Below the pieces are notes generated by a model that did no database searches, was not told where the DNA came from, and worked only from the letters and a program-made list of their open reading frames with translations. The position numbers and the translations under genes were made by a program. Source: a virus. Taken from it: a stretch of DNA of 64,000 nt. This document shows positions 402 to 47,409 of this stretch, piece by piece. The DNA lies in the IMG/VR virus record IMGVR_UViG_3300028374_000008, positions 1 through 64,000 of that record; one strand, 5' to 3'. The stretch's first letter is position 1; each line of letters opens with the position of its first letter.

Positions 402-1304
402 TCAGGTGATGGTGCACTTCACCAGGGAAGCGGTGTTACCGATTCCGATACCAGGCGCGGCGTACGAGAAGAACTCGATCATGTCCGCTTCCTGTTTGAT
501 GTAGAGCGTTGCGTCCTGAAGAAGGAAGAAGTTCCCCAGGTACTCTTGCGGCCCGAAGACCCAGAACTCATCGTTAGGCAGGATGTCGTTCTTGATGGTC
601 GTGATGACGGGGAACCCGAAGAGAGTGTTCTCCGACTCCACACCTTCGTCGTAGTGCCGCGACGCAATCCGGTCACCAACCGACGTAGCCGGCAGCGCCA
701 GGACGTCGTAGTAGAGTTCCTTCGTCATCAGAATCTTGCCGATCGGAATCCGACGGTTGAGAAGATTCTGGAACGCTTTGACGAACGCCTCAGCTTCAAG
801 ACCAGCATTCGTCACGATCTGCGTGGTTGCCGTCGCAATTGCGTCGATCGTCTCGTAGAACCGGCTATCCTCTTCATCGGCCATGTCCTTGACGGAGTTG
901 TCCGACAGGATCTTGCGGATGTCGTTCTGGTACGTCATCAGCTCGAACTTCGACTTCTGGAATCGCTGTGATTCCGTCTTGCCGAAGTACACGGCGTAGC
1001 GCGGGCCTTTGAACCAGGTTCGAGGGCCAGTGCCTTTGAAAGGGACGAACGTTGCACGGGAATCCGGCTCGATCTCAACGATCTTTTTCGGCAGGTCCGT
1101 GTTTTCGTCGCGATCGATTTCGTCGTCGCTAAGCAACTGCGGCGGAAGAATTTCGCGAGCGAAGGACGACTGACGAAGCTTTGAGCGGATAAAGGCAGAG
1201 CCTTCCTGCTGGGCTTCTTTCACTCGGCCGTCTTCGATTTTACGAAGAAAGCTCGAGTTGATCAGCTGGGCCGTGACCCGCGAGGTCTCGGTGTTATATG
1301 ACAT
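402..1304 (-). CDS. Probable major capsid protein
   Basis: 300 aa; last gene of the head block with its own terminator; N-terminal VKEA site then F.R.KLR...FAR.ILPP pattern recalled from jumbo-phage capsids. Confidence 0.7.
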   Translation of the reverse strand: MSYNTETSRVTAQLINSSFLRKIEDGRVKEAQQEGSAFIRSKLRQSSFAREILPPQLLSDDEIDRDENTDLPKKIVEIEPDSRATFVPFKGTGPRTWFKGPRYAVYFGKTESQRFQKSKFELMTYQNDIRKILSDNSVKDMADEEDSRFYETIDAIATATTQIVTNAGLEAEAFVKAFQNLLNRRIPIGKILMTKELYYDVLALPATSVGDRIASRHYDEGVESENTLFGFPVITTIKNDILPNDEFWVFGPQEYLGNFFLLQDATLYIKQEADMIEFFSYAAPGIGIGNTASLVKCTIT

Positions 1305-3300: not shown

Positions 3301-3900
3301 TTACTGCCCGGCCAGGTGTGAGACGACTTCTTCAGCGTCAGCGAATCCCCGCTCGAAGCAGTCATCCGCGTACTCAGCAATCTTCTCCATGGCAGCGACC
3401 ACACCGCGCGCGTCTTCGTCAGCTGCGTGCTTGGTGTTGCGGTACGCAGCTTCTTTCTGCTGACCAACAAGCTGGTTAAGCGCGTTCTCGGCTTCAGCGT
3501 AGCCAAGGTCTGCTGCCAGTTTGACTGACTCATGTGTGGAGCCGCCGCCCTGTTGGGCGTTGGCGACTTTCTGTCGCGGTGCTCCAGCAGCGTACTGATT
3601 GGCCCGCGAAACAAAGCCGTCAAAGACTGCAGCGCCGTAGAGCTGTGCTTCTTTGAGGGTCATCGTCTGCTCAGCGTCAGCGAGATCGCTTGCGACCTTT
3701 TCGAGCGTAGCAGTTGCCGACGCGTCGTTTTGGTTCGAGGCGACTTTGGTCTGCTGAGGGTGCACGCCTTCTAAAGCGCTTTCCAGAGCGGCCCGCTTTT
3801 GGTCGAGGTCGTGCACTGTTGCCGGTGCCGACGCGACTTTGGTCGTCTGTGAGTCAGCAACCCCATTGAGGTCGTTGAGGATGTCTTTGATCGAAGGCAT
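3301..3900 (-). CDS. Putative scaffold/internal head protein, K-x-A rich
   Basis: About nine K-x-A sites (TKVAS twice, EKVAS, LKEAQ, QKVAN, VKLAA, QKEAA, TKHAA, EKIAE). Confidence 0.65.
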   Translation of the reverse strand: MPSIKDILNDLNGVADSQTTKVASAPATVHDLDQKRAALESALEGVHPQQTKVASNQNDASATATLEKVASDLADAEQTMTLKEAQLYGAAVFDGFVSRANQYAAGAPRQKVANAQQGGGSTHESVKLAADLGYAEAENALNQLVGQQKEAAYRNTKHAADEDARGVVAAMEKIAEYADDCFERGFADAEEVVSHLAGQ

Positions 3901-3985: not shown

Positions 3986-5941
3986 TTAGGACAGTATTGA
4001 CTGACCAATCAAGGAGCAAAGATCATCAAGATCTACTTCATCGTAGGACATGGGGTCATGTGACGCCAGTTTAGTTGCGCGTTTGTACAGCTGATTAAGT
4101 AAGTGTCCAACGCCGCCTACACCAGCCGATGTGCCGATGGTAGTGGATATTGGGTTCGCACGTGCGACGTTCCCGAGACCTGCAGGGGCGACGGACCCGT
4201 GGTCTTGTGCGAGTAGTCCCGTCAGGAGAGCGCCGCCTGCAAGAGGCACGACAAGCTCCAACGGTACAGAGCTGCGTTTTTCAATAAACTCTGTATTTAC
4301 AGGGACTTTGATGCCCTGGTCGGTGTCGAGCTTGTCCACGCCTTGGCCTTTTATGAGCCCATATGTGCCGCCCATGGCGCCAAGTGCTGCAGGCGCAGCG
4401 AGCCACGGGTACTTTGAGCTTAAGACTTTGTAGCCGCCGCCCATGATGGCAGACAATCCCGCCAGTTCGGCCATCTGTTTCTTTGTGTTCTCTGTGTCCG
4501 CACGCTCTGCTGCGCGGCGCGTTGTCTGGTACGTACGCCCCGATTTAGGGTCACGCCACTCGAGCACTTGATGTGTCGGGGTGTAGTACGCGCCGTCGGC
4601 AGACATCTCTTCGCCAGGCAAAAGCGCCATGATGTTGGATTTGTCGACCAGCGGGCCTATACTCTCGGGGATGTAGGTACGTGCCAGGTAGTCTTTGTAC
4701 AACGCACGCTTCTCGCGCAGGGGCGCAGCCAGCCGCATGACGTCAGGCGAAACGTACTCTGACGCCACTTTAAAGAAGCCTACGTCTTCTAAGCGTTTGT
4801 AGACGTGAGGCATCTCGGCCATGACCGCGGCCACTTTGCCTTGCGACATCGCTATCCGCTTCTCGACTTCATTGTCTGTGGGAAGTCCATTTTGCGCGGT
4901 CAGGAAGCGGAAAATCTCGACCGTAGTCGGGATCATTCCGAGTGCGTTGAACGAGCTAAAGAGCTGCGGCGATGACACGTGACTGATGGACTGCATCTGC
5001 TCGTGGCTAAGCGTCGGCGTACCGCACAGCCACCCGTTCATCGTACGCAGCAGGTTCTTTGTGTGCTGGTACTCTTCTTCCGACATGGTTACGGAATTGG
5101 TCGTCGGGTTTACCATGTCGCCCGTGATGACCTTGTCGATGTCTGAGACTTTCTGCAGGATCGCGCGCTTCTCGGACAAGTCGTCGACACGCGCACCCAG
5201 CGCGGCACTTGTCTGCAGTGCGTACGGCTCCGCGACCTTTTTCATCGTGTAGCCGATACGGTCTGCTGGCTTGAATACGAAGCTGATGTCAAAGAGATGG
5301 GGTGCGGGGTTCCAGACGTAGTCACGGAAACCGTCAGGGGACAAGCGGTTCATCCCAAACTCAGGGTTCGACCCGTTGACGTGCTCGCAGTACTGCTCTC
5401 GAGTAGGCGCGCGGTTTCCGCACCGGTTGCACACATCGTACTTGATCCGGCAGCCCATCGAGACAGCGGGGAATTCCCCACCATCAATACGGCCTACGAT
5501 GTCCATCGCCTTGGAATTTTCCAGGCTGAGCAGGAGCTCAACGCGGTGCATCTTCCAGTTGTAGAAGGATTTCATGACATCGCCAAAGCCCTTCTTCGGG
5601 TCTTTGTTGATGTGGTGACGGTAGGCCTTTGCGTGCTGCTCAAACGTCTTGTGGTGCTCAGGGAGCGTCTCGCCTGGTGCGACCGCCCACTGCCCTGCAA
5701 TCTTTACAGGCTTTTCCGCGAAGGCGTCGCCGTTGCGGTTTGGCCCGTAGTACTCACTGGCGGACATCGCCAGGACGAGCACAATGGTGCGCCCCTCGAC
5801 AGCATCAATCGTCGAGCAGTAATCCAGTGTGTCCGACGACGCGTATTTGTAGAGTGCACGGTCCCGGGGGTCGATGATTTGACACCGCGCCTCGCCCGTA
5901 CGCTCAAAGTGTTCGTCGAACTGTAGGATCTTTGGGAGCAT
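3986..5941 (-). CDS. Putative prohead (maturation) protease with C-terminal extension
   Basis: NRNGDAF, YRHH, AVSMGC..YDVCNRCG (candidate catalytic Ser followed by Zn-finger), FDISFVFKPAD; lies in the head block. Confidence 0.6.
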   Translation of the reverse strand: MLPKILQFDEHFERTGEARCQIIDPRDRALYKYASSDTLDYCSTIDAVEGRTIVLVLAMSASEYYGPNRNGDAFAEKPVKIAGQWAVAPGETLPEHHKTFEQHAKAYRHHINKDPKKGFGDVMKSFYNWKMHRVELLLSLENSKAMDIVGRIDGGEFPAVSMGCRIKYDVCNRCGNRAPTREQYCEHVNGSNPEFGMNRLSPDGFRDYVWNPAPHLFDISFVFKPADRIGYTMKKVAEPYALQTSAALGARVDDLSEKRAILQKVSDIDKVITGDMVNPTTNSVTMSEEEYQHTKNLLRTMNGWLCGTPTLSHEQMQSISHVSSPQLFSSFNALGMIPTTVEIFRFLTAQNGLPTDNEVEKRIAMSQGKVAAVMAEMPHVYKRLEDVGFFKVASEYVSPDVMRLAAPLREKRALYKDYLARTYIPESIGPLVDKSNIMALLPGEEMSADGAYYTPTHQVLEWRDPKSGRTYQTTRRAAERADTENTKKQMAELAGLSAIMGGGYKVLSSKYPWLAAPAALGAMGGTYGLIKGQGVDKLDTDQGIKVPVNTEFIEKRSSVPLELVVPLAGGALLTGLLAQDHGSVAPAGLGNVARANPISTTIGTSAGVGGVGHLLNQLYKRATKLASHDPMSYDEVDLDDLCSLIGQSILS

Positions 5942-5944
5942 GGG

Positions 5945-6148
5945 TTACCCAGGTAGTTGAGCGGCAGGACCGACCATGGAGTAACCTTTTCGTAGGGCGT
6001 TATCTATATGCTTGTACTCGTCTGTGGCCGCATCACTGAGGCCGCCCGCTTCGTACAGCATCTGCGCGCGAGTTTTTGCCTCTTTTGTGCGCTGATGTGT
6101 AGACAGTCCCGCACACCTCATCGCGCGATTGTATCTGTGCTCAAACAT
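5945..6148 (-). CDS. Short paralog of the upstream virion protein
   Basis: MFEHRYNRAMRCAGL...RTKEAK.RAQ and MVGPA..LPG shared with 6148..7008. Confidence 0.6.
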   Translation of the reverse strand: MFEHRYNRAMRCAGLSTHQRTKEAKTRAQMLYEAGGLSDAATDEYKHIDNALRKGYSMVGPAAQLPG

Positions 6149-7008
6149 CAGTTTGTCCCTTCGTAAGCCATGAGGTTTTGGAGCCGAGATTCCATCGGGA
6201 GGTTGACCGGCGGAAGCTGGTTTAGCGCGTTACGAACAGTGTTGCCCATTGTATCGGCAGGCTGCAACCCGTAGTAGGCGCCGGTGCCCGCGCCGCCAAG
6301 CAAAAGCATGTTGCGAAGCGCGTTTGACGCCTCCGGCGTGGCGTCGGCGAAAGACGGAGCGTCTAAGTCGGGGATGTCGTCCACGACGCTTTCCCGCATC
6401 GTTGGCTCGCCGGGGATGTCGTCCACGACGCTTTCCCGCATCGTTAGCGCGGGCGTTTCGTCTGCGTAGGTTACCTCGGGTATCTCGTCCACGACGCTTT
6501 CCCGCATCGTTAGCGTGGGTCTTCTTTGTTCCATCCGCCGCTGCGACTCCGCTTTTAAACGTGCCTCCTGAGTGGCGTACCGCTTTTCTACAGCCCGGCG
6601 CGGGCCGCCAGGCAGTATTTCCGCGGGGCCGACCATGTTGTACTCCTCGGCGTTAGCACGCTCGATGTTGTGCGGTACGTATGTTGTATCATAAGCGTTG
6701 GCAGCGTAGTAACCACCCTCACCCTCGCGCATTTTACTACGGCCACCGCGCCTCTGACGGTAAAGCTCGGGCGTGTACATCGTGTCGCGCCACGGATCGG
6801 TGAGGTACGGGTCCTTCCAGTACTTGTATCCAGGCCCCGCCTTGTCCTCAGGGGCGGCGACAAAACCGTCCCGAAGGAGGCGGGCAACTGCGTTATCACT
6901 GAGATCCCCTGCCTCAAACAACTCCTGCGCGCGCGACTTCGCTTCTTTCGTGCGAAGAGGCAGCAGTCCCGCACACCTCATCGCCCTGTTGTACCCGTTC
7001 TCAAACAT
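6148..7008 (-). CDS. Putative internal virion protein
   Basis: Start moved to ATG 7008 (AGGAGA upstream); leader ends RTKEA; three TMRESVVD(D/E)IP repeats; hydrophobic Gly-rich C-terminal segment. Confidence 0.65.
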   Translation of the reverse strand: MFENGYNRAMRCAGLLPLRTKEAKSRAQELFEAGDLSDNAVARLLRDGFVAAPEDKAGPGYKYWKDPYLTDPWRDTMYTPELYRQRRGGRSKMREGEGGYYAANAYDTTYVPHNIERANAEEYNMVGPAEILPGGPRRAVEKRYATQEARLKAESQRRMEQRRPTLTMRESVVDEIPEVTYADETPALTMRESVVDDIPGEPTMRESVVDDIPDLDAPSFADATPEASNALRNMLLLGGAGTGAYYGLQPADTMGNTVRNALNQLPPVNLPMESRLQNLMAYEGTN

Positions 7009-7032
7009 CAGTTGTCTCCTCAGGAACATGCG

Positions 7033-14819: not shown

Positions 14820-17800
14820 TTAGCGCGCAGGTCGGGTGTTGGCAACCCCGGAGGGTGCTTGCTGCTGTTGTTGTTGTTGTTGCTGCGTTCGGCGGCGTCT
14901 CAGTTCGTCGTAGTATTGCTGCGCGCTCGTACGCGCTGACTGTAGGTCAGAGTACTGCTCCATGACAGGACTAGACTGCCAACCCCGTGAGTAGGCAGAC
15001 CGTAGACGGTCTGAAACGGCGTGGTCTCCTGCGTCTTGAGGCGGCGTGTAGTTCGGGTCGAGACCACGCCCGATTGCTTTACCTCCCGCGATGACGGGCG
15101 AGGCAAACGCGACGCCGCCAAGGTTGAACGGGCTGGCCGCGGCCCACCCAAGAACGTCACCGACAGCACCGCCTACGTTCTCGTAGCGCGACTCGTTCTC
15201 GCCGACAGGTTCCGTTGCGGCGTAATAAAGAGCCTGGGCGGGCGCGACGAACGTGTAGTACTTGGCCGCCGCTTCCATTGCAGCGGGCGCAGCCAGTTCC
15301 TTTAGCGATCCCTTACCTGCGCGCCAACGTTTGTAAGATCGCAGCGTATCCGGGTCGATCGCGAAGTCTCCCGCCATAACACCGCCACGTCCAAGTATAC
15401 CGCCTGTACGGTAGCGCTGGCGAAGTACCTCTAACGGGTCCTCGCCAAAGACCATGTCTTTTGCGAAGCGGCCAATAGGGCGCCCGCGTCGCTGCGCCTG
15501 CATGTAGTCTTCGTACATCTGCGGCGTAATGCGCTGCCCCAACCCCGGTTTAATGGCGTCAAACTCTTTGGGATCGAAATCAGGAATGGCCTCGCCTTTG
15601 TACTGGCGACGTAGGCCCGGACGACTCTCGTCGAGCTTGCGTATGAAAGCGTCGCCTTCAGAGGTCATGATGCCGCGGTCCGTTAGCCCAGCGTCTTCTA
15701 AGTCCAATCCGCCCATACGATCGGCCGCGCGGCGAAGCTCAACTGCGCGCGAGTCGACGCCGCCGCTGGGCGAGATAATCTTAAACGTGTCGTCATCAAG
15801 CGCTTTTCGGAGTTTGTTTGCGCCAGATACACCCGCACCGCGCCCGAACATTACACGTTTAAGCGTGCTCAGCGATGCCTGCTTTGCCTCCATGGGCACG
15901 CCGTCGACCAGAGCTGCAGCGTCCAGGGCAGACTCCTCTGGAGCAGGCGGGGGCGGGGCAGGCGCTGCTTTTGGTTTCGGGGCTTCGGCCACTTCTGCGT
16001 CCGGGTTGTCGACGAAGAACTGTACGATAGATTCGAGCAGGCCTGGCTCTCCTTCGTCTTCTCGCCGCTGCTGCGCGTCGCGACGCAGCTCACGTGTGGG
16101 CCGGTTAATAGGCGCGGTCAGCGTGTCGACAACGAATTGGTCAACTTCGGATGCGTACTTGCCCTGCTGCCCCGTCGCGAACGGGCGTCCCTCGATGTAG
16201 GCAGGTACCGGAGACGTCGACGAAACATCTGTCGTCATGCCAAAGCCGGCCCCGTCGACGAGCGTCTTACGCAGGTACCGGTGGGACAGTCGGCTCATCC
16301 AGTCGTCACTCAACAGAGGCGTCTGGATCATCGACTTCATGATTGGCTCAATGCGCGGCCCTTTGGTTGCTACCTCTACTTCTTTAACGTTTTGGCGCTT
16401 GAGCTCAGATATTACGCTCTGCGTGACGCGGGTGCCTTCTGTGTAGTGAAGTACAGGGGCGGCGAGCGTCTTACCCTGTGCTTGTCCGACGGGGATACGT
16501 TTAGGTGACTTGCCGAACGCTCCCTTTATTTTGTTGAACTCAACAACGTCGCCTGGAATGAACTGGCCTGAGTCGTCGTCTTCGACCCGAACGTAGTTCA
16601 TCGCCTTACGGGACAGGAGCTCCGTGTGACGCCGGTCAATGTCGACGCCCTGACGCCGGTAGAGCTTGGTGAGCGAGTCCGACAGGTAGCGTCTACCTTC
16701 GCCGATGCCTTTGTGCCGTACGACGGCGTCGGGCATGGGCGTGCCATCGGTGAGCGCGTCGCCTGCTTCAACTCGGTCGCCGACCTTTACAATGGGGTCG
16801 AGTTTGGGCGGCGTGTAGTAGCGCTTGCCAGCAAGCGTAATGTAGTGGCCGCCCTGCGGCGCCTTAACGATGCTCTCGATTTTGCCGTCTTTTTCCGCGA
16901 TAGCGGCTTTGTCCGTAAACGACTTTGGCACTTCGGTGAGCGTCTTAAAACCCGACAGCCCACGGAGCTTGTTGTCGTCGCCGCCTGCCAGTCGGACGCC
17001 GTGTTTTGCGTTCAGGACGAACTGTGTAAGCGGCTCCGTCAGAGCCTGCGCACTGCGAGAGCCGACGTTTGTCCCGACAGGGTAGGGCTTGCCCCACTCG
17101 TTTAGGCCCATGCATTTACGGCATACACCGTCCTTGGCTTCACACGTAGAGGGCGAGCGCACGAGTATGCGGTCGACCCCCTTCTTGTTGAGCGTGTTGA
17201 CGACGTCTGGTGTGACGAGCTCGTTCCGGGGCAGGCCTGATTCTGAGCGTGCCAAAAAGCGGTCGGCAATCTGGTCATCGGTGTCGAGCATGATGCCTGA
17301 GCGTGTGCCGCAATCTTCCTGCGTAACGACCAGGTCTTCCATATTCGACACGACCACCTTTGCAGCGGCGCCCGGCTCGACGACCGACCCCGTGGACGCA
17401 ATCGCGTTACGACGTGATTCGACGCCCGTCACCCACGCATCAGCAGGGTTAAGGCCTTGCGCATATGATTTGGTGACGAGCCACGGCGTGACCTCGCCGT
17501 GTGCGGTCGCCACCACAGGGGAAGCCACAGTCTTCATCAACTGCGGAATGGAGCCCCGGCCTCCTGACCTGGCCATGATGGTCATGTCAGAGGGGTGATT
17601 TTTTGTGATGTCTACAAACTTGTTCTGCGTGTCGAGCAAGATGCCGCGCTTTTCTTCGTCGGACTTGGCCGCCTTCATTTTACGCAGCGCGTCCTGCATG
17701 ACAGGGTCACGGTTTTTGTAGTCAGGCGCGATGTCATCAAGCCCCACAGAGATACCTTCCCAGGTAGCTACCTGGTCCCCCACACGCTTGATCTCTTGAA

Positions 17801-17945
17801 TTGCCTTTACGTACTCACGGGGGTTGCTCTTGGCGTATGTGGTCATCGCCTTGCGCAGCTTTCCCTTTGTGATGGGGCCGTCAATGGTGACGCCCGAAGG
17901 AAGCGCGTCCTGCATGAGCATTTGCCCAAACGTCAAATCAACCAT
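14820..17945 (-). CDS. Phage RNA polymerase beta' C-terminal subunit with long C-terminal extension
   Basis: MARSGGRGS, SYAQGL, EDCGT, RSPSTCEAKDGVCRKCMG (Zn site), SAQALTEPLTQFVLNAKH (trigger loop); start ATG 17945 overlaps upstream stop. Confidence 0.9.
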   Translation of the reverse strand: MVDLTFGQMLMQDALPSGVTIDGPITKGKLRKAMTTYAKSNPREYVKAIQEIKRVGDQVATWEGISVGLDDIAPDYKNRDPVMQDALRKMKAAKSDEEKRGILLDTQNKFVDITKNHPSDMTIMARSGGRGSIPQLMKTVASPVVATAHGEVTPWLVTKSYAQGLNPADAWVTGVESRRNAIASTGSVVEPGAAAKVVVSNMEDLVVTQEDCGTRSGIMLDTDDQIADRFLARSESGLPRNELVTPDVVNTLNKKGVDRILVRSPSTCEAKDGVCRKCMGLNEWGKPYPVGTNVGSRSAQALTEPLTQFVLNAKHGVRLAGGDDNKLRGLSGFKTLTEVPKSFTDKAAIAEKDGKIESIVKAPQGGHYITLAGKRYYTPPKLDPIVKVGDRVEAGDALTDGTPMPDAVVRHKGIGEGRRYLSDSLTKLYRRQGVDIDRRHTELLSRKAMNYVRVEDDDSGQFIPGDVVEFNKIKGAFGKSPKRIPVGQAQGKTLAAPVLHYTEGTRVTQSVISELKRQNVKEVEVATKGPRIEPIMKSMIQTPLLSDDWMSRLSHRYLRKTLVDGAGFGMTTDVSSTSPVPAYIEGRPFATGQQGKYASEVDQFVVDTLTAPINRPTRELRRDAQQRREDEGEPGLLESIVQFFVDNPDAEVAEAPKPKAAPAPPPPAPEESALDAAALVDGVPMEAKQASLSTLKRVMFGRGAGVSGANKLRKALDDDTFKIISPSGGVDSRAVELRRAADRMGGLDLEDAGLTDRGIMTSEGDAFIRKLDESRPGLRRQYKGEAIPDFDPKEFDAIKPGLGQRITPQMYEDYMQAQRRGRPIGRFAKDMVFGEDPLEVLRQRYRTGGILGRGGVMAGDFAIDPDTLRSYKRWRAGKGSLKELAAPAAMEAAAKYYTFVAPAQALYYAATEPVGENESRYENVGGAVGDVLGWAAASPFNLGGVAFASPVIAGGKAIGRGLDPNYTPPQDAGDHAVSDRLRSAYSRGWQSSPVMEQYSDLQSARTSAQQYYDELRRRRTQQQQQQQQQAPSGVANTRPAR

Positions 17946-18495
17946 ACCCGCCCCCTGCGCCCATTCGACTGTACCGATTTGCGCCGTATGCAAAGCCCGG
18001 AGCGGCCAGTGCACCTGCGGTAAGCGGCGCGTCCACTACGTCGAACGCTTGCATCGCTTTGCCTCCCGCTGTTGTCGGCTTCGCCGTTTGATCCGCAAGA
18101 CGCGTCGCTCTGAAGTACTGTCGGGAGCTTTTGCCAGCGTTGTTTACGGCACGCGCACCGGCAGCTACCCCTTTCCCGGTTGTTTTAGCTCCCCAACCAA
18201 GCGCTTTGCCGACGCCTTTTGCTGCAGCGCCTATTCCCTGCGCGACCGCTCCCATGACAGCCGCTTCTTTGATGATCTCTTCTTCTGTCATGTAGGCCAG
18301 ACGGTGCGTTACAGCAGCAGTCTTGACCCCTTGCATGGGCATGTGCACGTTCTGCTGTGCAATACTTTGCGACTCTAGAGACGCAGCAGGGCCCCAGTAA
18401 ACCGGCTCTTCGTACGACGGCACGATGCGCCTGGCGTCACGAATATTCGTGCTCGCGTTTTGTACCGCTTCAATAAAATCGGAAGTACTTTTCAT
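17938..18495 (-). CDS. Hypothetical virion protein between the RNAP genes
   Basis: 185 aa, VKTAA and IKEAA, Gly/Ala-rich C-half. Confidence 0.65.
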   Translation of the reverse strand: MKSTSDFIEAVQNASTNIRDARRIVPSYEEPVYWGPAASLESQSIAQQNVHMPMQGVKTAAVTHRLAYMTEEEIIKEAAVMGAVAQGIGAAAKGVGKALGWGAKTTGKGVAAGARAVNNAGKSSRQYFRATRLADQTAKPTTAGGKAMQAFDVVDAPLTAGALAAPGFAYGANRYSRMGAGGGYG

Positions 18496-21400
18496 GACTT
18501 GCCTTTGATCTTAACACGCGAGTTCATTTTTATCTCCCCACGCTTGTACGCAGCGAGCGCATCAGCCTTCGTCGCGAATGTTTTCGTCTTGCCCGTAGCG
18601 CTGTCCTTGGTGGCCATGTAGGCGCCAATGAGCGCCTCATGTGCGGGGAAGACCATTAGATCATCTTTTGAGCGGTCACCAAACAAAAGATTGGAGAGCG
18701 TAATGGATTTGGCCTCGTTCTTGGCGGCGTCACTCACCGGCGTGTGGAGCTGGACAGTATCGCCATCATAGTCAGCATTCATTCCACTTTCAGCAAACGG
18801 GTTGAGCCGAATTGTCTTACCCGGCACAAGCTTAGGGTACGCAGCGACCATGTTAAAGCGGTGCAGCGACGGTGCCCGGTTGAACAGGACAGGCCGGTCT
18901 TGGATCTCAATGTCGAGCTCACGCTTGGCTGCAGGCGCTTGGTCTTTGTAGAGCTGACGCGCTTCGGTCGCAGAGTAGCCGTTCTTGATGAGGCGCTTCA
19001 CGATGAAGGGCTCGTACATGCGCCAACCCATCTGCTCCGGCACACCAAGCTCGTCCAGCCCCAGCGTGTGGTCGGGTGCGATGGTTGCACGCCCTGACAG
19101 GTCTTGGCGCTTCTTGAGCATACGTGAGTGGAAGAACCCGCCTTTGGGTGACCCGGTGCCGGTGATTTGGCGCAAGTGACCTTTGACGCCCCGGCCTTTG
19201 TTCTGCGGGCTGACGGGATCGTTGGTCCCAAATAGCGCCCCAACGGTGTCGTGCAAGTGGCGCCGCTGCAGCTTCATCTCATCAGGGTAGCGCAGTTCTT
19301 CGGGCGTCTCTTTGATGGACTCATTGGCGAGCATGACGTCGCGATAGAGATAGTTGGCGTCAGACACCAGCGTCGTACCATCTGGGTTGGGCGTGATAGG
19401 ACGCACTTTAGGGGGCGTGACGGGCAGCTTTGTAAGTACGTACGCGTCGCCTGGGCGCATCTGTTCTTTGCTAAGCGCCCGGATGTACTTCAGCTTCTTG
19501 ACGGCAGTGTTCCGTGCTGAGCCGCTCCGGGACCGAACCTGCTCTTGGAGATCTTTCTCGAGCTTGTTTAGGTCGAGGTTGTTGAGCATACGCTTGACCT
19601 CTGCGGCGCCCTTGTCGTCGCGGAAATCTTGGAACTCAGACTTTGTCATGCCCAAGAGACGCCGGGCAGGCTCGACAAACACAGGGTTTACGACGGGCTC
19701 TGCTAGGTCAATCTTTGAGTACTTGTCCCCGTCTAAGCCGCCTGTCGCGGCCGGGTCAAAAAGTCCGCCTTTCTCGGGCGCAATCGTGGGCACACCGTCA
19801 ATCTTTTTGGGCTTTACCAGCAAGGCGTTATTGATGGTGCGCTCTGCCATGTCGTCGATGTCACGATCTGTCAGCGGCGCCAAGGTGCGCTTGGTTCCAT
19901 CTTTGTTGACCTTGATGCCTGCGCCGTGGAGCGTCTTGGTAAACTTGTCGTACGCGAAGTTTGTAGACGGAGTGGGCGCAGGCAGGCCAAGCTGTAATCG
20001 ACGCCAGTACTCATCGTTCTTTTGGCCTTTGATCGACGTCACATCAGACAAGATGTTTCGAGCGTTGTGCGCGATGAGCGCATTGAACTCCATCTTACCT
20101 ATAGATTTGGCGCCCTCATCGCCGCCCTTTGTAGGCTGCATGTTGGCGTCGTAGCCAGGACCGATGCCGCGCGCGGCGTAGTTGGTGTCCGTCGACTTGA
20201 ACAGCTTGTAGACGTACTGGCGTCCGACGTGGATGTTGGGGATTTTCTTGTCTGAGAGTGGGTCGTAGACAGTCTCCTTGTCTTTGACCCCATGCTGCTT
20301 CATCAAGTCTTTGGCCCACTGAACGTTGTCGTGGTCGGCAAACTGGTCAATGACGACGGGCTTGCCTGTTTTCTCCGCTACTTTTCCTACCGCGGTTTCT
20401 AGGATCTGATTAGGGTTGATTCGAGTGATGATGCCCGCGGACGTCATCAGGATGTCGAGGGGCTTTTCCTTCTCGTCGCGCACCATCTGGTCGTCGGGGA
20501 CGATTTTGGAGACGACGCCTTTGGCCCCGTACCGGTTCGCTAGCTTGTCGCCCACGCGCATGGGCTCGTCGGTACGGATGGTGACGAGTACTTGGCTACT
20601 CGTGATAGCGACGTCTTCGACTGTGCCTGGGTTGTGGTGGTCCCACGTCACGGCGGCGTCGCGGTACGGCTTGACCAGGGACTTGTGAAGGCGCCCAAGC
20701 ATCTGTTGCTTGGAACTGGCCTGCGAAGACTTCATGGCGGCGATGACAATCTCGCCGTTGTTGATGCGCTGGCCTTTCTTGATGACGCCTTTGCGGTCCA
20801 GCCGGTTGTACTCCGCTTTCGAGTAACGCGACCCGAAGTAGGCTTTGTGCTTGTCACGGTCGAGAACAGTCGACGGGTCGATGTCGATCTTCTCTTTGTA
20901 CATGTGCATCGACGTCATCTTCGACGCAGCGCCCTCCGAGATAACGACAGCGTCGTTTGAGTTCAGCCCGTTGTACGGCATGTACCCCACCGACATGTTC
21001 TTCCCCAACGCGAGTTTACCGTTACGGGTGAAGTTGTTGTCTGCCAGCACCTGGTTCTTTTTGACGCGGTCACCCTTCTTTACTTTGAGCTCGTCGTTCA
21101 GGTACGTCTTCGACATCAACGGAAACATCTGCGAGTAGGGGACTTTGTGAAGCTCCGCGTCGTCCGCGGCTTGTTTCATCATGCGGCCGGGCTCGTCTGG
21201 GTCATACGAAGAGAGCCCCATTCCCTCGTATATTTTCATGAGCGTTTCTTTGTCGACCGCTTTGTCCTTGTAAGGACGTGCACGTAGCCGCAGTACCTCG
21301 CCGCGGTGGTCCTCTGTTATGCGCGCCATAAGCTCACGCGCCAACCCTTGCCCGCGGTTGTCTGGATTTACCCAGACGCCGCTGATCCAAGGCCCATCGC

Positions 21401-23279
21401 CCTCTGTAGAGGTAGGTTTTAGCGACGCATACGCTACGTTTTTTCCATCTATGTGCGCATCGTACCTACGCATGAGTTCTTCGTCGTCGTCAGACCCGTG
21501 GTCATCAAATACGCTGTACGTTACTTCTGATGCGCTTTTCATCCGGTCCGGCCGAATGTAAACGAAGTCTCCGTCGATCTTGTCGATGGTGCCGTCGACA
21601 GGTGAGATTGGAACAGTCATCTCACCGAATTCTTGTTCAACGGTACGATCGTCCCCCGCCCAGCTACGCACTTGGACGTACGGCTCTTCACGCTCTTTAA
21701 GGGGCAGCGCCTGGGTCTGCATCTTCGAGCCCATGATGTTTCGGTTGCCCTGCGCCGACTCCAAAAACGGCACCAGATTCGTAGTAGGCGAGTACATCGA
21801 CGCGGAGGTGGGGATGCTGTAATCGACCTCAGTAGGCTTCACCGATACAACTTTGCCGCGACGCATGGCGTCGACGTACTTACTTCCCGTCAGCTTTTGG
21901 TTAGGGAACGCAATCGTCTTGTCTTCCAACTCGTCTGCCCGCTTGTACTCAACCTGGCCTGTTCGCCGGTTCTTAAGCGGCGCATACATATTGCCGTCGT
22001 CATCGCGCGCCGTGTGCAGCGCCGTGCGGACATCGATACCTGCTTTGCCTGACTCGGGCGTACGGACAGGGTCAATCATTCCGAAGTGGGAGTAGTGGAC
22101 ATCGCGCGCTTCGTCGGGGACGGCCAGGGTCGAGGAGATGCCGCCCTCACCCAGCGACGTCACTTTGACGGACTGGTCGATAATCTCCATCGGGTTGATC
22201 TGCATAGGCGTAGCAGACAGGGCCGACGTCGTGAGGAAGTTGTGCACGGACTTTGAGAACGGCGCGTTGGGCAGCACGTCGCCTACTTTGAGCGCGTCCT
22301 TTGTCTTGGACCGGTTCATTTTTCGTCGGACTTTGGAGCGCACGTCGCGTGCTGCGTCTTTCTCGATGCGCTCTTTGAAGAACGACTCAACGGTATGCAG
22401 CGTCTTAAATGCAGTGGAGTCGCGGTCGTCCTGCTCTTCTTTGTCGTTGTAAACGTTGAGAAGCTTCTGGCTTGCACGCAGGAGCGCCTTGGGCTGGACC
22501 GTGTCGAACTTTTGGCCCAGCGTCATCTGCGTAACGTTGGCGTCCATGCTCGTCGTTTTGTACGACTCTTTGATGGCCTCAATGCGCTCTTCGTGGGACA
22601 GCCCTGTCTTACGTGCAAAAGACGGGATGACCTTTTCGTAGAGCTTTCGGATGTGTTTGTTTTCTTTGCCCGACGAGTACGACTTGTTGATCTTTGTGAC
22701 GTCCGCATTCCACATGCGGGTCATCTTGGAGTCGCTCACGCCAAGGGCAGACAAGACCGCGTACAGCGGAATGCGTGTCGTGCCGTACTGCATGAAGAAC
22801 ACGCCGCGCTCAGGGTCCATCTCCAGGCGGAAGTTGCGTCCTTTGGAGAGGTTAAATGACGCCTCGAGCTGGCCATTTTCGCGTTGGCGTGTGTAGACGC
22901 CGGGCTTGATTCGGACCTGGTTTGCGACCGTGTAGTCGTTACCTCCCATTACAAATGTGTGCCGCTCCGTAAAGTAAGGTAGGTGCACGAGTGTACGCTT
23001 TGATCGGTCGAGGATCTTACCTGACTTCTTGTCCTTGAGAGTCACGGTGCCCTTCAAAGGCTCCACCAGCGTACGGCCTTCCATGAGCGCCAGCTTCTGC
23101 TCAGACGGAGAAAAGACAGTCGGCTTGTAATCGAAGTCTTCAACGTCGAGTTCGTAGTCGTCCGTCGACAGCGAGGGGATGACGTTCCGGATACCGTCCA
23201 TTGCGTGTTGCCGGATGCGCTCGCGGCGGTCTTCTGCGCGGGTCATCAGCTCATACAGGCGTGGTTTGTCGTCAGCCAT
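18492..23279 (-). CDS. Phage RNA polymerase, beta fused to beta' N-half, with internal GNAT domain
   Basis: beta: VRTPESGKAG, MGSKMQTQA, GDKLANRYGAKG, SIGKME. beta': LPVTPPKVRP, KRQDLSGRATI, LFNRAPSLHR, catalytic NADYDGD. Confidence 0.93.
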   Translation of the reverse strand: MADDKPRLYELMTRAEDRRERIRQHAMDGIRNVIPSLSTDDYELDVEDFDYKPTVFSPSEQKLALMEGRTLVEPLKGTVTLKDKKSGKILDRSKRTLVHLPYFTERHTFVMGGNDYTVANQVRIKPGVYTRQRENGQLEASFNLSKGRNFRLEMDPERGVFFMQYGTTRIPLYAVLSALGVSDSKMTRMWNADVTKINKSYSSGKENKHIRKLYEKVIPSFARKTGLSHEERIEAIKESYKTTSMDANVTQMTLGQKFDTVQPKALLRASQKLLNVYNDKEEQDDRDSTAFKTLHTVESFFKERIEKDAARDVRSKVRRKMNRSKTKDALKVGDVLPNAPFSKSVHNFLTTSALSATPMQINPMEIIDQSVKVTSLGEGGISSTLAVPDEARDVHYSHFGMIDPVRTPESGKAGIDVRTALHTARDDDGNMYAPLKNRRTGQVEYKRADELEDKTIAFPNQKLTGSKYVDAMRRGKVVSVKPTEVDYSIPTSASMYSPTTNLVPFLESAQGNRNIMGSKMQTQALPLKEREEPYVQVRSWAGDDRTVEQEFGEMTVPISPVDGTIDKIDGDFVYIRPDRMKSASEVTYSVFDDHGSDDDEELMRRYDAHIDGKNVAYASLKPTSTEGDGPWISGVWVNPDNRGQGLARELMARITEDHRGEVLRLRARPYKDKAVDKETLMKIYEGMGLSSYDPDEPGRMMKQAADDAELHKVPYSQMFPLMSKTYLNDELKVKKGDRVKKNQVLADNNFTRNGKLALGKNMSVGYMPYNGLNSNDAVVISEGAASKMTSMHMYKEKIDIDPSTVLDRDKHKAYFGSRYSKAEYNRLDRKGVIKKGQRINNGEIVIAAMKSSQASSKQQMLGRLHKSLVKPYRDAAVTWDHHNPGTVEDVAITSSQVLVTIRTDEPMRVGDKLANRYGAKGVVSKIVPDDQMVRDEKEKPLDILMTSAGIITRINPNQILETAVGKVAEKTGKPVVIDQFADHDNVQWAKDLMKQHGVKDKETVYDPLSDKKIPNIHVGRQYVYKLFKSTDTNYAARGIGPGYDANMQPTKGGDEGAKSIGKMEFNALIAHNARNILSDVTSIKGQKNDEYWRRLQLGLPAPTPSTNFAYDKFTKTLHGAGIKVNKDGTKRTLAPLTDRDIDDMAERTINNALLVKPKKIDGVPTIAPEKGGLFDPAATGGLDGDKYSKIDLAEPVVNPVFVEPARRLLGMTKSEFQDFRDDKGAAEVKRMLNNLDLNKLEKDLQEQVRSRSGSARNTAVKKLKYIRALSKEQMRPGDAYVLTKLPVTPPKVRPITPNPDGTTLVSDANYLYRDVMLANESIKETPEELRYPDEMKLQRRHLHDTVGALFGTNDPVSPQNKGRGVKGHLRQITGTGSPKGGFFHSRMLKKRQDLSGRATIAPDHTLGLDELGVPEQMGWRMYEPFIVKRLIKNGYSATEARQLYKDQAPAAKRELDIEIQDRPVLFNRAPSLHRFNMVAAYPKLVPGKTIRLNPFAESGMNADYDGDTVQLHTPVSDAAKNEAKSITLSNLLFGDRSKDDLMVFPAHEALIGAYMATKDSATGKTKTFATKADALAAYKRGEIKMNSRVKIKGKS

Positions 23280-25217: not shown

Positions 25218-26933
25218 TTATTGTACGGGCTGCCCAGACTGTTGCTGCGCCAGCTCGAGGCGTTGAATGACGACGGAGTAGAAGACAAAGTCTTCGTTTT
25301 GCATCTGCGCCAGCATACTGCGGCGCTCGCCGTATGGCATCTGCATAAGCTGCTCGACCTGCATGTCCGCGTCGGCAATCATCTTCTGCTGATCGTATCC
25401 GTAACCCTGGCCGTGCCCGGCTTCCTGCGCGGCCTGCTCAGCGATCGAGGTCTGAATCTTCTGCATCTCTCGGTCCTGCTTGAGCTGCATACGCATCTGG
25501 TTAAGCGCTTCTTGCTGTATTTGGTCTTGCTCTTCGTCGTAGTCGAGGTCGAGGGTCTCCGAGATGGTGCGTCGTGACATCAAGTTGTAGGAGGCGTCGG
25601 CCTGGAGCATCATCTGCTTCTGCTGGATGTCGTCGATAAACTTGAAGTTGGTGATGTCTGCTTCGACGGTGTCCCACCCCATGTAGCCAGCAATCGAGTC
25701 GCACATCCACTGCAACACATCTTTGATGTCTGCGGTGTGTGAGCGGAGCTGGTTCTCGAGCATCCGAAGAGTCACCGAAGATCCGGTATAAGAAAGTCCG
25801 CCGTACAAAAACTCTCGTGGCACTCCAAGCCCTGCGATGATGTTGTCCTCTGCTTCTTTGATCTCCCCAAGCGTCATCAGCGTTCGGCCCTGGCCGCCCA
25901 TCTGTGTTACGCCAAGTGCAACAGGCGCGAACATGATGTGGAGCGGGTCTTGGCGCCAACGTTTGATCGATTTGCGCGTCTCTTTGACCCACTGCGCATA
26001 CGAGATTGTAATCGCAGGGTCACTCGAGCCAGACGTCTGCGCAGGATGCAGAACCCGCATAGGAACAAGGTGGTCCATCGCGATGGCTTCGTTTGCCTTG
26101 CGTAATATCTCGGCGTAGTAGAACTGTTTCATCACCGCCATCAGAGACGGGAACCCCCACGCACTGGCAACACCTGCTGGGGCATGCGTCTTCATGTGGA
26201 AGATTTTCCCCTCGTCGAACTCGAACGTGGCGTCGTCTTGGAGTGCTGCGCGGATAAACCCTTTGGGCGTATCGTTGAGCATCGTAACGTCTCCCTCGCG
26301 GATGCGTTCTTTGAGCGCCGCAGGGATGTTGTAGTGATATATGATGCGCCCGGTGATGGGGTTTTCCTGCAGGTCAATCTGCTTCGGGTCCCACCGGATG
26401 ATGTTGATACGGTCCGGGTCGTAAATCTTAACGTCTACGACATCGTCGAGCTTTGTAGCCGACGTCTGACCGCAGTTCTTACATGAGAATTTGATGCTGG
26501 GATTGTTTTTGTCTTTAGCCTGAAACGAGTACTCGCCGATGCGCCGGATGTCCCACTGCGACCCGCAGTTTGAGCACGGGACCAAACGCTTGAACGGGAA
26601 GTACATCGACGAGAAGCTGTTGCCGTAGAGCTTGCGGTCCCGGGAGAGCGCTTTTAGCAGGGATGCGCCATGCATCGATTTGTTAATCAGGTCGTCGTAC
26701 TTGCCGCGCAGAACATCGTTTGGTGTGGTGAACGTTATGTCCGTGATAACGTAGTCGCCCATCTTCTCGAGCGCCTGCATGATGTGCGGAGAGTTGTAAT
26801 AAACGTACTCAATCCACCGGAACAAATCCTTGAGCTTTCGCGGCATGAACCCCGTCAAGTAATTGAACATAGGGTTCGGGTGCGAATTTGACCCACCGAA
26901 TAGGTCGGTAGGCTCTCGTACAATCGAACTCAT
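25218..26933 (-). CDS. Probable portal protein with Zn-ribbon insertion
   Basis: 571 aa; LYGNSF, IFHMK...WGFP, IIAGLGVP...GG.SY patterns; CSNC...CKNC insert. Confidence 0.75.
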   Translation of the reverse strand: MSSIVREPTDLFGGSNSHPNPMFNYLTGFMPRKLKDLFRWIEYVYYNSPHIMQALEKMGDYVITDITFTTPNDVLRGKYDDLINKSMHGASLLKALSRDRKLYGNSFSSMYFPFKRLVPCSNCGSQWDIRRIGEYSFQAKDKNNPSIKFSCKNCGQTSATKLDDVVDVKIYDPDRINIIRWDPKQIDLQENPITGRIIYHYNIPAALKERIREGDVTMLNDTPKGFIRAALQDDATFEFDEGKIFHMKTHAPAGVASAWGFPSLMAVMKQFYYAEILRKANEAIAMDHLVPMRVLHPAQTSGSSDPAITISYAQWVKETRKSIKRWRQDPLHIMFAPVALGVTQMGGQGRTLMTLGEIKEAEDNIIAGLGVPREFLYGGLSYTGSSVTLRMLENQLRSHTADIKDVLQWMCDSIAGYMGWDTVEADITNFKFIDDIQQKQMMLQADASYNLMSRRTISETLDLDYDEEQDQIQQEALNQMRMQLKQDREMQKIQTSIAEQAAQEAGHGQGYGYDQQKMIADADMQVEQLMQMPYGERRSMLAQMQNEDFVFYSVVIQRLELAQQQSGQPVQ

Positions 26934-45737: not shown

Positions 45738-46390
45738 CGCTCTCTCTTCGCTTTCATCTCTTCGACGTAGAGCTCTATCCCTGCCATCAACGCGAGTTGT
45801 ATGCCGGTAGGGCTCTCGTCGAATGGGGTGTCAGCGAGCTTGTCTTGGTCAAGCCTACCCCACCCCTTTTTTACCTTCTGAACAACGTCCTTATCCACAC
45901 GCGTCAGCTCGTGCAGGCGCTCTTCACAGAACTCTAAGCTCGGAGGCACACAGCACATACCGTCGTGCATGCACGAGGCCGCCGCGTAGCCTGCAGGTTC
46001 GTAGTCGAGGTACTCGTCCGGGGTGCCCTCATCGAACATGTCCTGTGTCAACTCGTTGATCTCGTTGACTGCCCACGCGATGTAGTCGGGTGATGCTTGT
46101 TGGTAGGCGTCTGGGATAACCGGGGTGCCGTTGAACGCTAAGACTGTGTTCTCAAAGACCGACGCGTCGGTGAACGCGCTGGCCTGTTCCCGTATCGTAA
46201 TCGCTGCGTGCAGTGCGTCCCACGCCGCGGGCGCCATCTCAATCCCCATCTCCACGAAGTCGAGCTCGAGTGTCTCCGGCTCGGTGTCGTGTAGCTCATC
46301 GCTGTAGAGCGCACGTGCTGCGAGGTAGCGTATCGACGCACATGTGTCGTCGTCACCTAACAGCTTCTTTGCCTGGTCTTTGGAGATCAC
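45719..46390 (-). CDS. Hypothetical protein
   Basis: 223-aa acidic ORF coupled to upstream minus-strand gene. Confidence 0.7.
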   Translation of the reverse strand: MISKDQAKKLLGDDDTCASIRYLAARALYSDELHDTEPETLELDFVEMGIEMAPAAWDALHAAITIREQASAFTDASVFENTVLAFNGTPVIPDAYQQASPDYIAWAVNEINELTQDMFDEGTPDEYLDYEPAGYAAASCMHDGMCCVPPSLEFCEERLHELTRVDKDVVQKVKKGWGRLDQDKLADTPFDESPTGIQLALMAGIELYVEEMKAKRERQLASL

Positions 46391-47409
46391 AGGTACGGCT
46401 TCAGTTGTGTGTAGAGCATCTTCTGCAGGTCGCCCGGCAGCGTCTCAATGAGCGCCTTGAACTGCGCAGGGTCGATGTCATCGCCGACTTTGCAGTGATC
46501 TAAGACATCTTCTCCCAAGACGTCCTCGACTTCAGGCGCCATAGCCATGAGCTCTTTCATTGGCACGTCGTGCCCTGCGAGCTGGATGGTGCGTGTGCTG
46601 GCGATCTTGTCCATGTTGAACACTGTCTCGACCGGGTTAAGCAATGTCCGGTCGTAACGCGGCCAGAACTCTGCCTGCTGGTCGAGGTCCTCGAGCATCC
46701 CTGCCAGCTTAATGAGCTGGTCACGGTCTTTGATGACGCCGCCACGTGGGAAGTTGTTCTCGATGGCCCACGCAAACTTCTGGAAGTCTGCAGCGCTCTC
46801 CACAGTCGGAGCGGCGCCAATGCGGGCTTCCACCCAATCAAGTAAGACGCCTGCATCGCAGGGGGTAAGACCTGCAAATTTGTAGATGTCTTTGGGCAGC
46901 TGGTCTTCGTCGAGACCAAATGACGCTGCCTTCTCTACAAGCCTGGACGCCGCTTGGGTAAGTGTCGGCGCCATGAGCTTGTTCTTTTGCTCCAACAGAG
47001 CATGCGCGGACACGTCCACATCGCTCGCCTCTTTAACGAGAAGCGCGCCGTATTGTGGTAGAAGAAAGTGTTCAGCATCAGGCTGCTGGTCGGGTAACAT
47101 TTCCGCCGCAGTCTTCTTTGGGTGCATCTCTTTTGCATCCAGTCCGAACATCTCCAGAGCGTTGTCGATGCGTTGCATCACGTTCTGGGGAACATGTGAA
47201 GCCTGCTTGGTCGCGTACGCCTTCGAAAGTAGACTGTGCTCCGGCGTGTGCACAGGAAAACGACGTACTTCGGGAAACGCGAATGCGGTGCCGGGCAGTC
47301 CCGGATCGTCCACAGATGCAGTCTTCACCTGCTGAATTGTTGTTGGATACTCACGAGCTATTTGCTGCAGAAGCAAGTGCTTCGTATCCGTAAACTGGTC
47401 AACTAACAT
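46387..47409 (-). CDS. Putative head protein, K-x-A rich
   Basis: VKTAS, TKQAS, KKTAA, VKEAS, EKAAS, IKLAG, DKIAS; AFAFP..RRFPVH. Confidence 0.7.
   Translation of the reverse strand: MLVDQFTDTKHLLLQQIAREYPTTIQQVKTASVDDPGLPGTAFAFPEVRRFPVHTPEHSLLSKAYATKQASHVPQNVMQRIDNALEMFGLDAKEMHPKKTAAEMLPDQQPDAEHFLLPQYGALLVKEASDVDVSAHALLEQKNKLMAPTLTQAASRLVEKAASFGLDEDQLPKDIYKFAGLTPCDAGVLLDWVEARIGAAPTVESAADFQKFAWAIENNFPRGGVIKDRDQLIKLAGMLEDLDQQAEFWPRYDRTLLNPVETVFNMDKIASTRTIQLAGHDVPMKELMAMAPEVEDVLGEDVLDHCKVGDDIDPAQFKALIETLPGDLQKMLYTQLKPYL

Follow-up and report, generated by a model that had tools for sequence, protein, structure and literature searches.

To our knowledge, no enzymatic domain has been described inside a cellular-type RNA polymerase subunit, the known inserts being structural repeats or inteins. 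Lineage-specific inserts in the beta and beta' subunits of the bacterial enzyme are reportedly the subject of work by Lane and Darst in 2010 and by Iyer, Koonin and Aravind in 2004. In phages and conjugative elements, polyvalent proteins include N4-type virion RNA polymerases with effector domains, and the GNAT domains of such proteins have been placed as RimI-like (Iyer, Burroughs, Anand, de Souza, Aravind 2017, PMC5512222). The virion RNA polymerases and ejection proteins of phiKZ-like phages are cut by the prohead protease at S/A/G-x-E (PMC5694885). T4 Alt, according to the summary in PMC5512222, is a head-packaged ADP-ribosyltransferase that the head protease trims and that is then injected, and Rac, as cited in PMC7824862, is a GNAT of phiKMV-like phages that acetylates the alpha subunit of host RNA polymerase. 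Here we analyse a GNAT-superfamily domain inserted in a fused RNA polymerase subunit, encoded on a 64,000-nucleotide stretch of viral DNA (the window, positions 1 to 64,000 of IMG/VR virus record IMGVR_UViG_3300028374_000008; the record holds 101,886 base pairs (bp) and is estimated to be 57% complete). Positions are those of the window unless the genome is named.

We lean slightly towards reading this insert as an effector-type mini-GNAT cargo that sits in a slot of the polymerase, is packaged with it, is cut out and is injected. That the GNAT is a delivered effector, whether free or tethered, appears fairly probable. To judge from its distribution in the sequence, the short motif K-x-A-[S/A] at the borders of the insert is probably a protease code; cutting at both flanking sites is close to an even call. 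The features on which this reading is built are as follows.

18492..23279, minus strand: fused RNA polymerase beta and beta' N-half, 1595 amino acids (aa), host of the insert (Pfam and alignment with Arash gp206)
21168..21542, minus strand: 125-aa insert, residues 580-704 (gap in Arash, D69 and 70-80% identical relatives)
21171..21524, minus strand: folded mini-GNAT core, residues 586-703 (AlphaFold2, Foldseek)
21339..21356, minus strand: acetyl-CoA-binding motif A, R-G-Q-G-L-A, residues 642-647 (read from sequence)
21528..21539, minus strand: upstream K-S-A-S, residues 581-584, putative cleavage site directly ahead of the first strand of the fold (from the list of K.A[SA] matches)
21165..21176, minus strand: downstream K-Q-A-A, residues 702-705 (aligns to K-T-A-A in the syntenic relative G001)

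A GNAT domain in a loop of the fused polymerase subunit

The 1595-aa open reading frame (ORF) displays the Pfam beta domains Rpb2_2, Rpb2_3 and Rpb2_6 (E 4e-47), after which come Rpb1_1 and Rpb1_2 and the catalytic N-A-D-Y-D-G-D near residue 1502. Since beta domains are followed by beta' N-terminal domains in one ORF, the gene joins beta to the N-half of beta'. Its product is 37% identical to gp206 of Salmonella phage Arash across about 90% of its length. A first-pass annotation of this DNA had proposed a GNAT acetyltransferase between two quoted beta motifs; both motifs are present, and the stretch translates exactly as claimed at the coordinates given (residues 580-704), while its strand had to be corrected to minus.

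The insert, whose first residues are M-K-S-A and whose last are M-K-Q-A, passes the Pfam cut-offs for Acetyltransf_1 (E 1.3e-8, 35.6 bits against a cut-off of 20.7) and Acetyltransf_7 (31.0 bits against 27), while its sole NCBIfam match is to rimI, below threshold. AlphaFold2, run on an alignment of 61 sequences, returned a model with a pLDDT of 94.7 and a pTM of 0.85, in which four strands are followed by a helix, a strand, a helix and the last strand. Against the PDB, Foldseek gave 108 matches at E<=1e-3, and all those listed are GNATs, with query TM-scores of 0.5-0.64. The best matches of the family profile among sequences of solved structures are RimI and eukaryotic or archaeal N-terminal acetyltransferases. 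Because Pfam, the structure model and the fold search agree, the insert is a GNAT-superfamily domain, as had been claimed and as the structural check proposed with that claim bears out; transfer of an acetyl group from acetyl-CoA is a predicted activity. In motif A, at least 90% of the 61 family members share R63 and G66 (numbered from the start of the insert), and the tyrosine of motif B (Y...G) is present and conserved across the family. The N-terminal beta1-alpha1-alpha2 arm of canonical GNATs is missing, with no helices before strand 4 in the model, and the Acetyltransf_1 match begins only at profile position 30. As judged from sequence and model, the insert is thus a shortened mini-GNAT of about 115 residues, like free-standing members of 94-130 aa. 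When beta residues 520-800 were modelled together, the GNAT came out well and the flanking polymerase poorly, so the model says little about the exposure of the linkers. The insert-bearing protein recurs at 98-100% identity in independent assemblies from JGI, ENA, Logan and MetaClust and is therefore not an assembly artefact, and a profile search of its own genome found a single copy of the GNAT (E 1.4e-59).

Relatives delimit the insertion sharply. Arash gp206 and D69_0261 align on either side of it and leave a clean gap across all of it, and the closest relatives are 117-119 aa shorter (L005 and L009 at 70% identity, P0005 and P0006 at 72-80% local identity). We then surveyed the slot in an alignment of 40 beta homologues, which also answered a check proposed by the first-pass annotation. 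The slot is empty in most of these relatives, with a short loop in its place, and in the clade nearest to the window the loop holds one or two K-x-(x)-A-A motifs. Other homologues carry different cargo: P0008 and P0168 have a D-G-R-H-R-containing module of about 115 aa that is possibly ParB/sulfiredoxin-like, P0011 has an InPase-like (pyrophosphatase-like) domain (PF18823, E 9e-5, below threshold), and P0009 has a module of about 140 aa for which Protein Atlas gave no match. For the P0168 cargo, Protein Atlas pointed to ParB_N/sulfiredoxin as a weak lead with a fairly high score, and the ParB label is owed mainly to the D-G-R-H-R motif because these leads are weak. K-x-A-type motifs are kept on both sides of the cargo-bearing slots. 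The view that this position is a variable loop is thus borne out by the alternation of empty slots with other cargo between similar flanks. By offset from the aligned block at E. coli beta 763-833, the slot would fall roughly at E. coli beta 740-755. The point at which the AR9/phiKZ beta subunit is split is another place, the C-terminal piece of AR9 beginning roughly 90 residues upstream. Compared by eye for a direct repeat, the DNA at the two borders of the insert has A-T-G-A-A-A alone in common and therefore gives no sign of a target-site duplication.

Several beta homologues are interrupted in other ways. L016 and L023 carry a classical intein of about 410 aa, with a homing-endonuclease-like middle, some 10 residues downstream of the slot, and P0013 and P0015 also have intein Pfam domains. 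In Vibrio phages D181 (L004) and D148, the beta/beta'-N gene is broken after about residue 515 by roughly 950 bp that hold a homing endonuclease gene and small ORFs, which could be an intron or a split gene; the D69 gene is intact. Finally, P0165, at 1993 aa, exceeds the other members of its 90% cluster, the 1451-aa P0012 among them, by about 540 aa, and the extra length may be another insertion, an intein or cargo.

The GNAT is not confined to beta. In a module search with residues 540-760 as query, it was found at 50-71% identity in other carriers: within the beta' C-half proteins P0003 (70%) and P0004 (57%), and in the C-terminal extension of the SNF2 helicase P0007 (50%). The beta' C-half of the window has a matching second slot, in which K-x-A-S sites at residues 619 and 711 are separated by a 92-aa low-complexity spacer, and which is apparently empty or decayed. 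In the syntenic relative G001 the two sites of this slot lie 10 residues apart, in P0003 the slot holds the GNAT, and in P0004 it holds the GNAT and a D-G-R-H-R module, with a repeated junction peptide after each. An exhaustive search of 1.8 billion representatives gave a family of 146 members at 50% clustering, of which many are free-standing (94-150 aa) and many others are built into large proteins (800-2900 aa) with SNF2, InPase, 2H-SAK or LigD_N domains. The insert had no tblastn match in 50,697 cultured-phage records, and a search of IMG/VR with the insert alone found no close relatives. Nor did a profile search find the GNAT in four related genomes, one of them complete, and the domain is therefore an accessory module.

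The K-x-A-[S/A] motif and the head block

The polymerase genes sit inside a block of head genes, between those for the portal and the major capsid protein, and the capsid-to-portal gene order is that of Arash gp226-gp204. The members of this block that matter here are listed below.

402..1304, minus strand: major capsid protein gene, at one end of the block (42% identity to Arash gp226, E 5e-68)
3986..5941, minus strand: candidate head maturation protease, 651 aa (PHROG 18299, residues 67-196)
14820..18014, minus strand: RNA polymerase beta' C-half, next large gene downstream of the fusion (Pfam Rpb1_5; 31% identity to Arash gp216)
15873..16160, minus strand: second cargo slot, in the beta' C-half, residues 619-714 (two K-x-A-S sites round the 92-aa spacer)
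25218..26933, minus strand: portal gene, at the other end of the block (31% identity to Arash portal gp204, E 4e-78)

The nearest cultured relatives, at about 37% identity, are Salmonella phage Arash (181 kb) and Vibrio phages D69, D181 and D148 (187 kb), the related genomes measuring 175-187 kb in all, and a sigma-factor homologue is encoded at genome positions 68000-69091. The phage is thus Arash-like, with a genome of about 180 kb, and the jumbo-phage framing in which the insert was first presented has to be given up. A phiKZ-type polymerase, taken as one whose beta and beta' are each encoded by several genes, which works without a sigma factor and belongs to a genome >200 kb, is ruled out by the fusion of beta to beta'-N, by the sigma homologue and by the size of the relatives' genomes. 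Translation of the beta' C-half probably begins at the Met near 17945, because the alignment with P0003 and P0004 begins at residue 24. The listed GTG start (18014) overlaps by 77 nucleotides a 185-aa ORF that carries two K-x-A-A sites and lies between the two polymerase genes (17938-18495, minus strand).

In order to judge the motif, we compared its counts with those expected from within-protein shuffles. The pattern K.A[SA] occurs 38 times in the 22 proteins of the head block against 9.1 expected (z about 10), whereas it stands at 4 against 3.1 in the replication block and at 6 against 5.1 in the tail block; four patterns taken as controls (R.A[SA], A.K[SA], E.A[SA] and KA.[SA]) are flat. 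An unbiased scan of 400 gapped residue pairs likewise put K.A at the top in the head block (z 6.1, the next pair reaching 3.7), while K.A was not among the top pairs outside it. The head block of Arash is also enriched in K.A (z 3.9), and in G001 there are 30 K.A[SA] sites in the head block against 8.5 expected and 17 against 13.4 in the rest. Positions are conserved as well, 20 of 35 sites lying within two columns of a G001 site, against 2 by chance, in proteins that are 37-71% identical. The sites cluster in small scaffold-like proteins, with 5 at 1942-2304 and 7 in the 199 aa encoded at 3301-3900. The motif is therefore a real one, specific to the head block and conserved in position. The enriched region, at about four-fold, spans 402-26933 (minus strand) and 46387-47409. 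Furthermore, six genes with unrelated bodies begin with a G-Y-x-R-T-M-K-x-A-G-L-like leader (5945-6148 and 6148-7029 in the window and 69482-72861 in the genome, all on the minus strand), which could be a capsid-targeting sequence that ends in a K-x-A motif.

At the insert, the two K-x-A-[S/A] sites flank the folded domain, 2-5 residues beyond its first and its last strand. The loop of relatives with an empty slot carries the same kind of motif, so the bracket was not brought in by the insert. At the C-terminal end, R-M-x-K forms the last strand of the model and is invariant in the free-standing family, where 1-5 residues and the stop follow it; the K of the downstream K-Q-A-A is this invariant last lysine. 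The proposal that the GNAT is bracketed by K-x-A sites holds in that a site is present at each end; it has to be amended in that the bracket is not imported and that R-M-x-K is the GNAT's own C-terminus. In unrelated large multi-domain proteins, too, the borders of the GNAT often carry a K-x-A motif.

A maturation protease had been presumed, and a candidate was found within the head block. The N-terminal third of the 651-aa protein matches PHROG 18299 'head maturation protease' (E 3.1e-8), and the protein is a homologue of the Arash virion protein gp222, annotated only as structural. Its own C-terminal part carries K-x-A-[S/A] sites, 3 of 4 being conserved in G001. It has no Pfam or NCBIfam match, the genome has no match to the Pfam models Peptidase_S77 and Peptidase_S78, Pfam returned nothing informative for ten proteins of the head block, and a search of IMG/VR with the candidate found no close relatives.

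As to packaging, the first-pass annotation had the polymerase carried in the capsid, and the homologue supports this: Arash gp206 has the most spectra (3516) of all proteins in purified virions, in which beta' gp216, sigma gp10 and helicase gp217 were also detected among 116 listed proteins (PMC10585845). Because of the rank of gp206 and the location of the genes between portal and capsid, packaging of the polymerase is likely for this phage group, by analogy with Arash. The accompanying statement that virion polymerases of jumbo phages are processed by the prohead protease is true of the beta subunit of 201phi2-1, which loses a propeptide, and not of that of SPN3US, which is uncut (PMC5694885).

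Proposed excision and the alternatives

On the reading that we prefer, a GNAT from the domain repertoire of phage polyvalent and ejection proteins would occupy a cargo slot formed by a surface loop in the first sandwich-barrel hybrid region of the beta part. The polymerase would be built late in infection and enter the prohead; as its genes lie in the head block and the polymerase is likely packaged, the GNAT would ride with it into the capsid and then into the host. Two copies of K-x-A-[S/A] would delimit the slot, and the head maturation protease would cut the motif between its K-x-A part and the S or A that follows. Cuts in K581-S-A-S and K702-Q-A-A, after A583 and A704, would free a 121-aa enzyme and leave beta as two non-covalently associated pieces. 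On infection, the polymerase would transcribe early genes, while the GNAT would use host acetyl-CoA on a protein target, an acetylation that, by analogy with T4 Alt and Rac, might aid takeover or counter defence. Cleavage, release, injection and a target are what we infer.

A tentative extension, which we hold to be somewhat less than an even bet, is that paired protease sites in loops or linkers of packaged enzymes (beta, beta'-C, the SNF2 helicase) are landing pads for exchangeable cut-out cargo. If so, any domain between two K-x-A-[S/A] sites would automatically be packaged, excised at head maturation and injected, and the GNAT, InPase-like, possibly ParB-like and other modules would be swapped between close relatives.

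Several points weigh against excision and delivery. The protease is a candidate, assigned from one PHROG match, and cleavage is deduced from the motif; the C-terminal motif belongs in part to the GNAT itself. The Arash list of 116 proteins is very long, and some of its entries may therefore be carry-over. The further K.A[SA] sites of beta, at 307 and 1223, were considered as extra cuts, including one that would separate beta from beta', and were set aside: they lie in widely conserved polymerase sequence and are therefore probably incidental. Furthermore, about 18 linker residues could let the GNAT stay uncut in the loop by bridging its termini.

This last point belongs to the main rival, an uncut and permanently inserted domain, which we regard as unlikely though it deserves serious weight. 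The GNAT would stay covalent in beta and act in cis on or near the polymerase, its target being the polymerase itself, a phage protein that partners it or a factor of the host that encounters the phage transcription complex, and the border motifs would be mere native loop sequence. The motifs are indeed native to the empty loop, and modelled in its context the GNAT still folds as an autonomous domain. Extra domains and packaging do not entail cutting either, as the N4 virion polymerase is packaged unprocessed despite its extra domains (PMC5512222) and the SPN3US virion beta is unprocessed (PMC5694885). Nevertheless, the occurrence of the same module in three unrelated host proteins and free-standing speaks against a role tied to the polymerase. 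The slot is also taken by unrelated enzymes, modules are bracketed by the motif wherever they occur, and selection acts on the motif in head proteins.

Another rival is a neutral or selfish in-frame insertion, a cassette brought by illegitimate recombination into a tolerant loop and inactive in, or useless to, the phage. The insertion looks recent, because relatives at 70-80% identity are without it; its distribution is patchy, and the duplicated junction peptides of P0004 suggest recombination at the linkers. Against this, motifs A and B are intact, as are the invariant residues peculiar to the family, and the structure model is very confident. The protein also recurs nearly unchanged in independent samples and the family is widespread, and we thus find such an insertion improbable.

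Still more improbable in our view is that K-x-A-[S/A] is a recognition motif of another kind, be it a site of lysine modification (even by the GNAT), of docking to scaffold or portal, or of cross-linking. The conserved residue is a lysine and the enrichment is confined to head proteins, both of which such a function would accommodate. It would fit less well with G001, which has the same code and no GNAT copy in the 57% of its genome that was covered, or with the location of sites at domain borders. Multiple sites are clustered in small scaffold-like proteins and in the protease candidate's C-terminal part, a pattern that T4 and phiKZ protease substrates also display (PMC5694885). Finally, an intein, an intron-encoded protein or an assembly chimera is hardly credible in spite of the inteins near the slot in L016 and L023 and the homing endonuclease that splits the gene in D181 and D148: the frame is continuous, base composition is unremarkable and the assemblies are independent, and an intein is ruled out by a fold that is GNAT and not Hint and by junctions that have no C-terminal His-Asn and no Cys, Ser or Thr after them (the insert ends in K-Q-A, then Ala).

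Comparison with known systems

Were the GNAT delivered as we propose, it would extend the idea of polyvalent and ejection proteins from single-subunit N4-type polymerases to multisubunit phage polymerases. It suggests a simple rule for loading effectors into a capsid, namely insertion, into an already packaged protein, between two of its protease sites, and the slot could serve as an engineering site for protein delivery with phage particles. Cutting of K-x-A-[S/A] before its last residue is a testable protease code for a little-known group of phages, among them the cultured Arash and Vibrio phages. The acetyltransferase family, of about 100 aa and with no cultured-phage representative, provides candidate host-takeover or anti-defence enzymes.

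With polyvalent proteins, the locus has in common a location among late virion genes, a repertoire that comprises RimI-like GNAT, InPase, SNF2, ParB-like and 2H domains, and the joining of distinct domains in one polypeptide (here polymerase and GNAT, in relatives GNAT and a second module). Those proteins involve single-subunit N4-type polymerases with domains placed end to end, and the word 'multisubunit' is absent from PMC5512222. Here, in contrast, the host is a cellular-type beta/beta' protein, the cargo lies inside a loop of a folded domain, the slot is defined and bordered by a motif, and its content varies among close relatives. With phiKZ-like phages, the likeness is a head-packaged multisubunit polymerase and a protease whose short three-residue code directs the cutting of many head and ejection proteins, as we propose for this phage. 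The differences are the fusion of beta to beta'-N in place of several genes, the sigma factors, the genome of about 180 kb, a motif that is K-x-A-[S/A] and not x-x-E, and the proposed excision of an internal enzyme where phiKZ-like proteins lose an N-terminal propeptide.

T4 Alt resembles the proposed cargo as a host-modifying transferase delivered with the DNA after trimming by a protease; it is a separate protein with its own targeting sequence, whereas here a polymerase subunit would be the carrier. Rac would be alike in role, as a GNAT that a phage with a polymerase of its own turns on the transcription apparatus of the host, and it could plausibly serve as a model for the target; Rac is made early as a free protein, while the GNAT described here lies inside a polymerase. 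The lineage-specific inserts of bacterial polymerases show that the surface loops of the large subunits can accommodate large insertions, which often lie within or close to sandwich-barrel hybrid domains. They are structural repeats (SBHM/BBM2) fixed in each lineage, whereas this insert is an enzyme and is exchangeable between near relatives. The combination of an exchangeable enzyme cargo in a polymerase loop, matching slots in beta' and a helicase, and one head-specific motif is, as far as we found, without precedent, while each of its ingredients has one in polyvalent proteins, packaged polymerases, protease-trimmed injected enzymes and beta inserts.

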